Assembly (NCBI GenBank): GCA_963771045.1
Contig: CAVYRW010000004.1
Location: 160,001 to 224,000, forward strand
Origin: Waddliaceae bacterium
GTDB lineage: Bacteria; Chlamydiota; Chlamydiia; Chlamydiales; SLFE01
Reading direction: 5' to 3'
DNA length: 64,000 bases
Shown: piece after piece, positions 19,540 through 24,115 of the stretch
Numbering within the stretch: position 1 is the first letter of the stretch
Layout: each line of letters begins with the position of its first letter
Notes under the pieces: model-generated
What the model was told of the DNA's origin: nothing
Databases searched by the model: none
What the model saw: the letters and a program-made list of their open reading frames with translations, nothing else
Made by a program: the position numbers and the translations under genes

Positions 19540-20646
19540 ATGAGCGAGATTTTTACAGTGACTCTGCCCGATATCGGCGAGGGTGTCGTCGAGGGGGAAG
19601 TGATCGAGTGGTTGAAAAAGGAAGGAGACTCTCTCAAGCAAGACGAACCTGTGGTTGTGGTCATGACGGACAAAGCGACTGTGGAACTTCCCGCCCCTTA
19701 TCCGGGAACGCTTTCCAAACAGTATAAAAAGCCCGGCGATATCGCAATCAAGGACAAGCCCCTTTACGATATCGCAGTTGAAAAAAAGCCGACAAAAGAA
19801 GAAACAGCGACTCTTGCTGCCCCCGCGACAAGGGAGCTGGCAAAAGAGCTGGGTGTGGATATCGATCTAATCCCGGGAACCGGGCAGGACGGCCGCGTCA
19901 CCGACTCCGATGTTGTGAAGTTTCACGCCCGCGGCGAATCCAAGCCCGAAAGCTTAGATGATGAAGAAGTGCCGATCATCGGCATACCCCACATGATGGC
20001 CGAAAAGATGGCCGAGTCCAAGCACATCATCCCCCACTTCTCCTTCTTCGACCAGCTCGATGCCGGCCGCGTAATCCAGCTCCGCGAAAACATCGGAAAA
20101 CGCGCGGAAATCGAAGGGTTCAGGCTCACCTATATGCCTTTTTTCATCAAAGCCCTGTCTAAAACACTGACCGAATTTCCTCAAGCGAACGCGTCCGTCG
20201 CATCCGACGCGAAATCCCTCATACTTCACAAGCACCACCATATCGGCATCGCCTCGAAAACAGAAGAGGGCCTCGTTGTTTTTGTCCTTCGCGATGTTCA
20301 AGTCAAGACGCTCGAGCAGATCATCAAAGAGTACGACCTGCTGGCAAAAAAAATGAAAGAGAAAAAACTGACAAGAGAGGATATGGTCGGCTCCACGATC
20401 ACCATCAGTAATTTCGGCCCATTGGGAGGCGTATGGGCTACCCCGATAATCAATTTTCCCGAGGTGGCGATATTAGGGACGGCAAAAATCAGAAAAACCC
20501 CTGTCGTAAAAAACGACGAGATTGTGATACGGTCTATACTCAATCTGTCTTGGAGCTTCGACCACCGTGTCATCGACGGAGACCTCGCCGCGAAGGTCTC
20601 GAATCGCTTCATTCATCTTTTGGAAAATCCCGCCCAGCTTCTTTAG
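19540..20646 (+). CDS. bkdB: dihydrolipoamide acyltransferase E2
   Basis: Lipoyl domain MTDKATVE, E3-binding PATRELAKELG, catalytic FDHRVIDG. Confidence 0.9.
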   Translation: MSEIFTVTLPDIGEGVVEGEVIEWLKKEGDSLKQDEPVVVVMTDKATVELPAPYPGTLSKQYKKPGDIAIKDKPLYDIAVEKKPTKEETATLAAPATRELAKELGVDIDLIPGTGQDGRVTDSDVVKFHARGESKPESLDDEEVPIIGIPHMMAEKMAESKHIIPHFSFFDQLDAGRVIQLRENIGKRAEIEGFRLTYMPFFIKALSKTLTEFPQANASVASDAKSLILHKHHHIGIASKTEEGLVVFVLRDVQVKTLEQIIKEYDLLAKKMKEKKLTREDMVGSTITISNFGPLGGVWATPIINFPEVAILGTAKIRKTPVVKNDEIVIRSILNLSWSFDHRVIDGDLAAKVSNRFIHLLENPAQLL

Positions 20647-20735
20647 ATAACGAGAGTTTTTTGACAAGAAAATCTCTTGCCTGACCTATTCTTTGCTAAG
20701 TTGAATTTATTTAAATATTTTTTAACGTCCGCTCG

Positions 20736-21602
20736 GGCTGTGTTGAATAACTTAAATTTTTAAATTGTCTAACCCAAGTTTTCTTATCTGATAATCATGC
20801 TGTTATCATAGCGTTCAGAATTTGAAGCTTGAGTGAATTCTCAACTCTTTGTCTTTCATATGTTTTTGAAAATAGTCGACCTCCAAAGAGTCGTTTATAC
20901 CTAGAGAAAAAGGTTTCAACAAGCACTCTTCTACTGTAGCCTGTCAGCTTACCCCATAACGATCTGGCTCGCTCATCATTTCCAAGCCCCATTATCTCGA
21001 GTGCTGCATTATCACGCTCAGCTCTATCATACCTTACTTTTGCATTGCGAGGCGGCGGAATTATTGGTTTAGCTCCGCGCTTTTTTATGCTGGTTCGACA
21101 TTTTTGTTTATCATAGGCTCCGTCTGCTTTTACCTCGTCAATCTTGCCATTAATTTGATCAAGCAAGTCCTCGACTACAGAGGAATCACTAATGTTCGAA
21201 TCAGTCAATGATTCTGCAACTACTTCTTGAGTATCCTCATCTAAAGCTACATGGAGTTTCAACCACTTGTTGATCTCTTGAAATACTGAACGCGCAAATC
21301 CTTCAAGAGCACGATAACCAAGGTTAAATCGAATCTTCACAACCAGGAGAAGTTCAATGAGGGCATCGAGATATTTTGTAGGTCTTCCATTTTTGGATTT
21401 TGGCTTAAATTTCTGAATCTCCCGAACGGTTTTTTGATGGATCATGAAAGTTACACTTCCACGTTGAACGAGTTTTCTGTTATATTCACTCCAGATGCGC
21501 TTTTGCATTCGAAACTCCTTGCTGGTTTTGTCGTTAGCTAAGGAGTTTCTTTCTTTTAGGGGATATTTATCAAGTCTTTTCTAGAGGTTTTTCAACACAG
21601 CC
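20736..21602 (-). mobile_element. IS5-family (IS903 group) insertion sequence, internally deleted
   Basis: Terminal IRs GGCTGTGTTGAATAACTT / GGCTGTGTTGAAAAACCT; perfect 9-bp direct repeat GTCCGCTCG at 20727-20735 and 21603-21611. Confidence 0.93.
20795..21508 (-). pseudogene. IS903-group transposase with in-frame internal deletion of about 59 aa
   Basis: WSEYNRKLVQRGS, ADGAYD, GYSRRVLVET present; the IDSTG..GEGEW block of the neighbouring transposase is missing (…QEINK|WLKLHVA). Confidence 0.85.
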
Positions 21603-21686
21603 GTCCGCTCGTTAAAGCTCGCTCAAGACGCAAAGTTTTAGAGAATATTCAAACAATAATTTGAATAAAATTTTATTTAAATTGGT

Positions 21687-21744
21687 GGCGTTGTTGCATA
21701 AATCACCACTGAGACCACCGAGCTCACTGAGAGATTATGAGAGA
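21687..21744 (+). repeat. left extended inverted repeat with three 9-bp CAC(T/C)GAGNN units
   Basis: GGCGTTGTTGCATAAATCAC-CACTGAGAC-CACCGAGCT-CACTGAGAG-ATTATGAGAGA. Confidence 0.85.
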
Positions 21745-21748
21745 GGAA

Positions 21749-22156
21749 TTAAATGATTAGACGCCTAATCCCATTTTTTAGAAGTTTTACATTGAAATTG
21801 ATGAGCAAACCTCTGCCACCACCATTATGCTTAAGATAGGATAGAAGTTGGGCCTCATGAACAGGCAAGAAATTGGCCACAGATTTTATCTCCAAAATAA
21901 CCTTATCTTCCACTATCATATCGATCCGGTAGCCTGAGTCTAGCTTTTTATCACGATAAATAATAGGTACTGGTATCTGCCGGTTAACTTTCAAACCCGC
22001 AAGGTTCAACTCGTAGCAAAGACAAGTTTCGTATGTCGATTCAAGCAAGCCTGGACCTAATCTTCGATGAACTTCAATCGCAGCACCTATGATTTCCCCT
22101 GTTAAAAGGTCATTTCTTTTTTGGTTGGCTTCTTCAGTTGTGTGGGTACTAGTCAT
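21749..22156 (-). CDS. GxxExxY protein (PD-(D/E)XK nuclease-fold family)
   Basis: IIGAAIEVHRRLGPGLLESTYE, YRIDMIVEDKVILEIKSV, HEAQLLSYL, GLLINFN; GGAG RBS upstream. Confidence 0.92.
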   Translation of the reverse strand: MTSTHTTEEANQKRNDLLTGEIIGAAIEVHRRLGPGLLESTYETCLCYELNLAGLKVNRQIPVPIIYRDKKLDSGYRIDMIVEDKVILEIKSVANFLPVHEAQLLSYLKHNGGGRGLLINFNVKLLKNGIRRLII

Positions 22157-22240
22157 CTTTTCTCCAAAAAGGGCGAATGCGAGCTTGCCGACAAATACCT
22201 AATACTCTAATTTTTAGTTGCAACAAATTGGAGGATCAAG

Positions 22241-23185
22241 ATGAAGGCAAAATATCGCATTCGCAACTGGAACGACTATAACAAATCTCTTATTCAAAGG
22301 GGAAGCATAACTGTTTGGTTTTCTGAAGATGCTATCAATAAGTGGATGGCTCCAAAAGAAATAGGAAAAAAGGGGCGTCCAAAACTCTATTCTGATGACG
22401 CTATTCTCACCGCGCTCATTATTCGATCGGTTTTTCATCTTCCATTGAGAGCACTCGAAGGATTTTTGACATCTCTTGTTATGATTTTATCTGTTGGTTT
22501 ATCGATTCCTTCTTATACTCAAATTTGTCGGAGAGCTAAGTTGTTGGGGCAAGAGTTGAAGAAACTTTCGAAAAAAAAAGTCACCAATATTGTAATCGAT
22601 TCAACCGGTTTGAAAGTGTACGGAGAGGGTGAATGGAAAGTTAGGCAGCATGGAATCAGTAAAAGGCGAACATGGAGAAAGCTCCATCTGGCAGTCTGCC
22701 CTGACTCTCACGAAATTATTTTCGAAATTCTTACTGAAAATAACGTTGCAGATTGTGAAGTGTATCCAAAACTTCTCGAGGTAATGCCGAAATCAGTTAA
22801 GCGCACATATGGAGATGGGGCTTATGATACTAAGCGATGCTATGCTGCAAATGTAGTTCACGGCTCAATTCCTATTATTCCACCCAATAGGAATGCTGTT
22901 TTTCGAGAAAACATATCTCCTTCTTGGAAGATGCGGAATATCAGTTTGCTGGAAATTTCAGGTTTAGGAGGTGATGATGATGCAAGAAAATTATGGAAAA
23001 AGTTGAAAGGTTATCATCGTCGATCACTTGCAGAAACAGCCATGTTTAGATTTAAACGATTCTTTGGAAATGATTTAAGAAGTAGAACTCTGGAAACCCA
23101 AAGGGCTGAATCAAGGGCAAAATGTGAAGCACTAAATATAATGACAAAGCTGGGAATGCCTGAAAGTGAATTAATAGCAGCTTAA
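22241..23185 (+). CDS. IS5-family (IS903 group) DDE transposase, apparently intact
   Basis: NWNDYNKSLIQRGSIT, IDSTG, GEGEW, WRKLHL, GDGAYD, GYHRRSLAETAMFRFK; GGAGG RBS. Confidence 0.95.
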   Translation: MKAKYRIRNWNDYNKSLIQRGSITVWFSEDAINKWMAPKEIGKKGRPKLYSDDAILTALIIRSVFHLPLRALEGFLTSLVMILSVGLSIPSYTQICRRAKLLGQELKKLSKKKVTNIVIDSTGLKVYGEGEWKVRQHGISKRRTWRKLHLAVCPDSHEIIFEILTENNVADCEVYPKLLEVMPKSVKRTYGDGAYDTKRCYAANVVHGSIPIIPPNRNAVFRENISPSWKMRNISLLEISGLGGDDDARKLWKKLKGYHRRSLAETAMFRFKRFFGNDLRSRTLETQRAESRAKCEALNIMTKLGMPESELIAA

Positions 23186-23191
23186 ATCAAA

Positions 23192-23250
23192 TCTCTCATA
23201 TTCTCTCTGTGCGCTCTTGTGAGCTCTGTGGTTAATTACGCAACAAAGCC
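23192..23250 (-). repeat. right extended inverted repeat
   Basis: Reverse complement reads GGCTTTGTTGCGTAATTAAC-CACAGAGCT-CACAAGAGCG-CACAGAGAG-AATATGAGAGA; 47/59 identical to the left repeat by manual alignment. Confidence 0.85.
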
Positions 23251-23416
23251 TAAATTGGTAATAAAATTACTTACATTTTCTAAAACATATTAAAAATAAT
23301 TGAGTTAAATTAATTAATAAGTTATAACTATAACTTAGTTAAAAACTTAATGGAGTTGATCAGACAAAATTCAACCGGATTTTTCGGTCATAGATCTTAA
23401 TATTTAAGAAGTCGTT

Positions 23417-24020
23417 ATGGATGTTAAAGGAGTAGGACCTTCATTTCAGCAGAAATTACTAAAGGTTGAAGCACGTATAGATACTCTTCCTTATGAATTA
23501 TTGTTCCAAATTTATTCTTATCTTGAATTTAAGGATCTTCAAAACCTTGCATTGGTTAATACAATAACTGGAGGGGTGACACGAGATAACAAATTTTTAG
23601 GAGTAAAAATAAGCCAAAAAGCCTTTAAAATACTCAGTTTGCCATCTGATGACAAAGAAAAAAAAACGCTGAAAACTTCTTGAATTCAGAAGCACCGCGG
23701 TCGATTACTGAACTCGATCTTTCAAATTTACAAATGACAGATGACCTTATAGATAAGTTGGTCGGCAAATTTCCAAATCTCGTAACAATTAACTTGTCTA
23801 ATACTCAGCTTTCAGCTCAGCAAGTACAAAAGCTTTTAAAGTTAAAAAATCTAAGATTTCTAAATTTATATGTAAAATCGGCGCTGAAGGGGCAAAAGAA
23901 CTTGCCGAAGCGCTGAAAAAGAATAAAACCCTCATAGCACTTGATTTGAGGCTTAACAGCATCGGTATTGAAGAAAAACGTGCTTTAAGAAAATTGGGTA
24001 TCGAAAGATTGATTCTTTGA
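23417..24020 (+). CDS. F-box + leucine-rich-repeat protein (effector candidate), 2 frameshifts
   Basis: F-box IDTLPYELLFQIYSYLEFKDLQNLALVN; LRRs ITELDLSN, LVTINLSN, LRFLNL, and in a third frame KIGAEGAKELAEALKKNKTLIALDLRLNSIG to TGA 24018-20. Confidence 0.75.
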
Positions 24021-24115
24021 CAGCTGAAAGTCACATGTGTTGTTGAGCTTTAACCAATTTATGGCGAAAAATCAGAGCTATTTTGTCCGAAAATTGGCGC
24101 TTTTTCAAGGTTTAA

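Follow-up and report, generated by a model that had tools for sequence, protein, structure and literature searches.

Why should an insertion sequence carry a gene for a predicted nuclease, and whose are the repeats from which both of its ends are partly built? These are the questions raised by a 1,564-bp unit (21687-23250) in the window analysed here, a 64,000-nucleotide stretch of a Waddliaceae genome. The IS903-type transposase, the tips and the target duplication of this element are known things; what is new, to go by the papers searched, is that the repeats of a passenger, a gene of the GxxExxY family, make up part of both ends of an IS903-group insertion sequence (IS). It is with the nuclease gene, and not with the transposase, that these repeats vary, which makes it likely that one mobile element is nested in another, and we lean, from sequence comparison, towards the view that the GxxExxY protein acts on its own arrays as a selfish element inside the IS. 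If that is true, the element would be a case of one selfish element remaking the ends of another, and a new form of bacterial mobility would be defined should GxxExxY prove to maintain or move its arrays. The element is also a likely handle on the function of the widespread GxxExxY family: one recently spread piece of 1.56 kb unites the gene, its candidate DNA sites and a transposase, which makes tests of binding, cutting and transposition direct.

The element, its ends and its copies

Much of the preliminary description of this locus stands as it was written (Table 1). It had proposed a unit of 1,564 bp with a perfect 9-bp duplication, and TAAATTGGT is indeed repeated on either side; it had proposed a divergent gene pair with an 84-bp spacer and inverted repeats of about 58 bp that reach to within a few bp of the stop codons, and we find the GxxExxY gene on the minus and the transposase gene on the plus strand, ends that align at 79.66% over 59 columns (47/59), and arrays that begin 4 bp from the GxxExxY stop and 6 bp from that of the transposase. 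The claim of three CACWGAG units per end needs amending, since units 1 and 3 fit this word while unit 2 departs from it on both sides, reading CACCGAG on the left and CACAAGAG on the right. Each end thus consists of an 18-bp IS903-type tip to which a CACNGAG array is joined at base 19, with three units about 9 bp apart (unit starts 21, 30 and 39 on the left, and 21, 30 and 40 on the right) and a TATGAG unit after them.

Table 1. Parts of the element and their positions in the window
Feature	Position	Strand	Remarks
Left 9-bp target duplication copy	21678..21686	+	Flanks the 1,564-bp unit
Left 18-bp IS903-type tip	21687..21704	+	About the same as the L259 repeat; end-specific in 9 elements
Left CACNGAG array, inward-facing	21705..21744	+	Three 9-bp-periodic units and a TATGAG unit; resembles free GxxExxY arrays
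GxxExxY gene, 135 aa, predicted PD-(D/E)XK nuclease	21749..22156	-	E39, D79, E89-x-K91, Q103xxxY107
84-bp divergent spacer	22157..22240	.	Array-free; promoters inferred; recombination breakpoints between relatives near transposase side
IS5-family, IS903-group DDE transposase, 314 aa	22241..23185	+	D120, D192, E265
Right CACNGAG array, inward-facing	23192..23232	-	6 bp from transposase stop; distances track GxxExxY better than transposase
Right 18-bp IS903-type tip	23233..23250	-	From the end alignment
Right 9-bp target duplication copy	23251..23259	+	Flanks the 1,564-bp unit

That the arrays lie so close behind the stop codons, which free arrays elsewhere hug too, invites the thought that they act in RNA, in termination or stability of both transcripts, and that GxxExxY is an RNA-acting regulator of the element. 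We give this hardly any credence: single ends fold no better than shuffled sequences (z 0.1 to 1.0), promoter and terminator signals in the element do not rise above shuffles, there is no terminator call at the arrays and no Rfam family in the element, and a role at two separate 3' ends leaves the matching of one array to the other, described below, unexplained. A consensus scan of the spacer flags no promoter. As for expression, one RNA run yielded a contig of 217 bases that matches the GxxExxY gene at about 97% identity, which is too little for a claim of transcription, and the contigs examined hold no joints.

The transposase is firmly placed in the IS5 family (NF033579, 289 bits against a cut-off of 140), and its DDE triad is invariant in 20 of 20 aligned relatives. 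The IS903 group of this family is tabulated with ISPam1, ISPam2, ISPko1, ISPlc1 and ISPpa8, and with terminal inverted repeats of about 15-27 bp, in PMC3281130. The element resembles this group in its NF033579 DDE transposase, its outer tips of 18 bp, its 9-bp duplication (present in 12 of 16 full copies and in a diverged one), its many copies and its minis. It differs in that IS of the group have a single gene and about 1.05 kb (1,050-1,054 bp), whereas here there are 1,564 bp, a second, divergent gene and about 40 bp of foreign arrays that extend each tip inwards. We therefore file it as a two-gene derivative of the IS903 group and not as a plain member.

The idea that both genes move as one unit, with copies between different 9-bp flanks, is confirmed by the genome itself, in which there are 16 full copies at an identity of at least 99.87%, all of them holding both genes and 12 of them having their own duplication. 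One of the four that have none abuts a copy of the IS256-like element that also occurs in a diverged 17th copy, and one full copy has a 1-bp deletion in the transposase gene. This 17th copy, with a 9-bp duplication of its own, is interrupted by that element, which we take from its translated sequence to be IS256-like, and is itself a mosaic (the first 350 bp identical, the remainder about 78%); further remnants are one internal fragment and one gutted copy of 300 bp. A genome of the same genus carries 9 near-full copies at 98-100% identity, against 86% for orthologous DNA (one locus measured), which indicates recent transfer, and two relatives, G002 and G005, have the flanking genes of the present copy but lack the whole of the roughly 3.5 kb between them (20641-24115). 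The element is an IS903-group insertion sequence that is likely still active.

Its boundaries at the tips, together with the 9-bp duplications, point by their footprint to the DDE enzyme as the likely mover, the chemistry of transposition being that established for IS5. The target sites (n = 13) are AT-rich and have no clear consensus, and they lend no support to the suggestion that the element might home to arrays, array words being found in 0 of the 13. Duplications of 9 bp also flank minis, which are 64-72 bp long and have clipped arrays, and one of these, a 72-bp mini with one recurring junction, sits at four different sites, at two of them between perfect 9-bp duplications, so that full arrays, and GxxExxY in cis, seem dispensable.

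There are some further observations on the surroundings. A second IS903-group element (20736-21602, minus strand), internally deleted, with plain tips and a 9-bp duplication of its own, lies 84 bp from the left end of the 1,564-bp unit; its transposase is 33% identical and belongs to another clade. On the other side (23417-23916, plus strand) an F-box ORF is followed by an LRR ORF in a different frame, like a split eukaryote-type protein gene, and in G001 a related repeat forms long arrays. Elsewhere in the genome (L288, G000:C4 ~1967840-1967910) an isolated IS903-type tip adjoins a small hairpin with perfect arms of 12 bp that start with the array word, and this may show a hairpin landing beside a tip. 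Outside the IS, a repeat some 80 bp long, with a single array unit at its start, is present in three copies (G000 C2:74452, C4:639375 and C4:887889).

The predicted nuclease and its free-standing relatives

The passenger's ORF matches PF13366 (E 2e-41) and TIGR04256 (E 3e-43), both above cut-off, and is a full member by both models of the GxxExxY/PDDEXK_3 family, whose function is given as 'Unknown' in PMC3424549. It had been described as a PD-(D/E)XK-fold protein, and the predicted fold agrees: the AlphaFold model (pLDDT 93, 83-row alignment) has its best matches in Cas4, Hjc and restriction enzymes. These matches are middling (VIA Z up to 7.8) and Foldseek returned no match to the model at E 0.001 or better, so we claim no single closest structure; PDB sequence searches gave weak matches only (E 0.37 or worse). 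A single-sequence fold, at pLDDT 35, was discarded. Across 80 loci, six of which are near-copies, D79 and K91 are kept in all and E89 in 78, and from fold and residues together we predict that GxxExxY is a nuclease. The family is large, with 7,431 clusters (50% identity) at E 1e-10 or better. Among P0001-P0120 there are many proteins, 260-335 aa long, in which two GxxExxY domains score in tandem, and a few in which the domain is joined to housekeeping domains; the best 120 of 225 longer homologues include no fused GxxExxY-DDE protein.

To judge by dN/dS, both genes of the element are under purifying selection, the medians by a simple counting method in 10 non-redundant elements being 0.056 for GxxExxY and 0.098 for the transposase; of the 45 pairs, 7 and 5 respectively were unsaturated. 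Might the gene then simply be cargo that is useful to the host, in defence or DNA repair, with inert arrays kept matched by general gene conversion? The strength of the selection on GxxExxY, the resemblance of its fold to those of restriction enzymes, Cas4 and Hjc, and the position of all GxxExxY matches in this genome within the element would suit such a role. We think it rather improbable nonetheless, since a PADLOC search gave only weak Cas4 matches (E 0.014), since the spread is patchy (27 of 61 related genomes), and since there is a site, described below, where a different protein subfamily comes with a different repeat word, which inert repeats would not need. A restriction-enzyme-like fold with its catalytic residues kept, persisting long within a selfish element, could also be that of an addiction or exclusion nuclease, checked by paired arrays and harming cells or rivals that lose or mismatch them. 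This is very unlikely, however, with antitoxin and methylase both absent from the element and many decayed or gutted copies surviving in related genomes.

Where, then, do the arrays come from? Most members of the family, in contrast to the IS-borne one studied here, are free-standing between inverted arrays, much as the preliminary description had it. Loci of the nearest GxxExxY relatives were scored across many phyla, with five near-copies and short-flanked loci set aside and three IS-borne ones included. In these 71 an inward array lies downstream of the gene in 62, upstream in 44 and on both sides in 42, against 76 of 3,260 control windows (2.3%). The arrays at 62 of the 71 loci support the earlier proposal that in this chimeric element an IS903-group IS has been joined with a cassette of GxxExxY gene and repeats.

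Between relatives, orthologous sites have gained, lost or exchanged free cassettes. Of 16 loci that share a site in Flavobacteriaceae, 13 could be resolved: eight have the present subfamily with CACAGAG arrays, four have a GKGFxEVVY subfamily with CAC(G/T)AATT arrays (two truncated ORFs), and one is empty; at a second orthologous site the cassette is present in two of ten. Enzyme type is tied to repeat type in the few examples that we read by eye, and the automatic table of motif against repeat word, which is noisy, served for examples only. At L332-L335 the first GxxExxY subfamily gives way, in one and the same intergenic position, to a second that has a 9-bp-periodic word of its own. This genome also holds two gene-less hairpins with the same words, behind stop codons, which G001, or G002 and G003, lack at the corresponding orthologous position. 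At free cassettes neither a sharp boundary nor a duplication was legible, the relatives compared being too diverged.

Which gene the arrays follow

The preliminary description had left it possible that the layout was a one-off capture, and this can now be set aside. A pattern of the tip plus the first array unit matched 115 metagenome stretches and 11 of 401 genomes of the phylum, the reversed pattern having 0 matches, and where a near-full transposase stands behind the fused end, as it does at 15 metagenome loci, GxxExxY is always present too (at one of them cut by the contig end). The transposases at these loci are 66-100% identical in whole-length matches, relatives down to about 61-66% retain the layout, and many of the other pattern matches are gutted copies, ends only or chance matches. 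Because the pattern demands an array, a transposase-led search of 61 related genomes was added; most of the array-bearing rows in our tree were chosen by the pattern. Of the 34 transposases in this tree, the 12 with arrays group on a single branch (95/90), whose sister, L259, at 59% identity, has a single gene and a plain 18-bp repeat about the same as the element's tips; the outgroups are likewise single-gene with plain tips, and arrays are absent from them. Within the array-bearing branch, L258 has its right array, but where GxxExxY would be expected it has DNA of another kind and the contig ends. The two-gene layout is old, and of the transposase clades sampled only this one has it.

Across 10 related elements, a small set of short, low-complexity arrays under hand-set scoring, the left and right arrays of the same element are more alike (identity 0.835) than are left arrays among themselves (0.744) or right arrays among themselves (0.711), and the tips show the reverse (0.85 within an element, against 0.89 left to left and 0.87 right to right). 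A single duplication at the origin predicts the reverse of the order seen in the arrays, which means that matching either happened again and again or is being maintained. Of distant comparisons, 48 of 60 go in the same direction, with own arrays more alike, and in free cassettes (36 loci) own-array identity is 0.76 against 0.61. The matching is far from complete: its own right array is the best match for only five of the ten left arrays, with one more tie, and the present element is among the least matched, at 0.76. The right array lies 1.1 kb from the GxxExxY gene, and its distances correlate with those of GxxExxY at r 0.69 and with those of the transposase at r 0.48 (9 elements, L174 replacing L144, the two values compared by size alone). 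We should add that the arrays could also be matched by ordinary gene conversion between inverted repeats, or because the transposase selects for subterminal sites that are symmetrical.

The two genes, as their alignments have it, recombine and exchange partners: each alignment rejects the tree of the other (AU p 1e-12 and 5e-7), and the trees are still correlated (r 0.57). There is a crossover near the transposase start in L130, and the GxxExxY genes borne by IS do not form a single clade (AU p 0.0018), the free L001 and L085 nesting among them.

Could the nuclease have been domesticated by the transposase? In Tn7, TnsA serves TnsB, and by analogy GxxExxY might bind the subterminal arrays and cut or pair the ends, a role in end processing that had been put forward for it. 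GxxExxY shares its superfamily with TnsA, which is entered as PD-(D/E)XK in PMC3424549; Tn7 and the element both set such a protein beside a DDE transposase and have ends with repeated internal sites. Further points in favour are that the gene is intact across a clade whose synonymous sites are saturated, that arrays begin at base 19 of both ends in most elements, and that no near-full metagenome element is without it, for a genuine helper function would likewise keep a gene intact for long in one IS clade. Unlike Tn7, however, the element is without TnsC and TnsD, having two genes only, it makes a 9-bp duplication, and its transposase has close relatives that manage with no nuclease. Against the accessory role stand also the single gene and plain tips of L259 and all of the outgroups, the 72-bp mini with its clipped arrays at four sites (GxxExxY could act there in trans), the swapping of partners, the cassettes held internally by an IS630 element and by another IS5 group, and the lack of a DDE domain in the same best 120 of 225 longer homologues. 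We consider this role unlikely.

In the nested reading that we favour, the DDE transposase would move the whole unit via its 18-bp tips, while the predicted nuclease would recognise its own arrays and travel as a second selfish element. The cassette may first have landed at the inner edge of one tip, the last bases of which resemble the TT(C/A) before free arrays, and a copy of the array would then have been taken up by the element's other end. GxxExxY would bind or nick the paired arrays, probably in dimeric form, since tandem doubles of it occur in nature, and its action would start copying by which arrays are kept matched, GxxExxY halves are swapped and gene-less hairpins are produced; the IS, for its part, would supply the cassette with copy number and passage between species. 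A bolder proposal is that GxxExxY proteins at large are the mobilising enzymes of undescribed, widespread, repeat-bracketed elements, a PD-(D/E)XK counterpart of REPIN-RAYT, and that the present IS is doubly mobile, with GxxExxY rewriting arrays 1.4 kb apart and exchanging cassette halves. This we advance only tentatively, as possible and not as probable.

Known systems and other carriers

Transporter IS (tIS) are insertion sequences with a passenger gene. The element is like them in placing transposase and passenger between one pair of ends, both genes being present in 16 of 16 full copies. It is unlike them in that the passenger brought its own repeats, which are now both subterminal regions, so that the transposase sits inside the passenger's cassette, and in that passenger and arrays evolve jointly and swap between elements. 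REPIN-RAYT, as described in PMC3337134, is similar in having a small enzyme gene between inverted repeats, a pairing of enzyme and repeat type, and gene-less hairpins elsewhere in the genome that vary between relatives; the enzyme there, however, is an HUH/Y1 transposase, in place of the predicted PD-(D/E)XK protein here, and here the arrays are 9-bp-periodic and the gene is multicopy through an IS. In the literature searched, a scope outside which lie subscription journals, supplements and ISfinder, we found no description of the element or of GxxExxY repeats, and PMC9723776 holds no passage on IS903, passengers or nucleases. The element could be named in the IS tables that supplement papers on chlamydial genomes.

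Other insertion sequences carry the cassette too. An intact array-gene-array cassette lies inside a 1.76-kb IS630 element (6 copies) and inside a 1.41-kb split-ORF IS5 element (3 copies); in both it is plain cargo, and only in the IS903 clade is a transposase found between the arrays. The high-copy GxxExxY remnants of G016 and L003-L008 were considered as self-mobile cassettes and rejected, as they lie inside larger elements that are IS-borne where a transposase can be read. In G016 (L314-L323) there are 117 array matches and dozens of near-identical 276-bp cassettes with truncated GxxExxY, inside larger repeated elements and some of them in tandem. L083 was rejected as a free-standing GxxExxY locus, decayed IS tips being present: in this G002 locus (near 1940-2033) an intact GxxExxY gene without transposase lies behind a housekeeping operon, and after it come two decayed tips, back to back and 9 bp apart.
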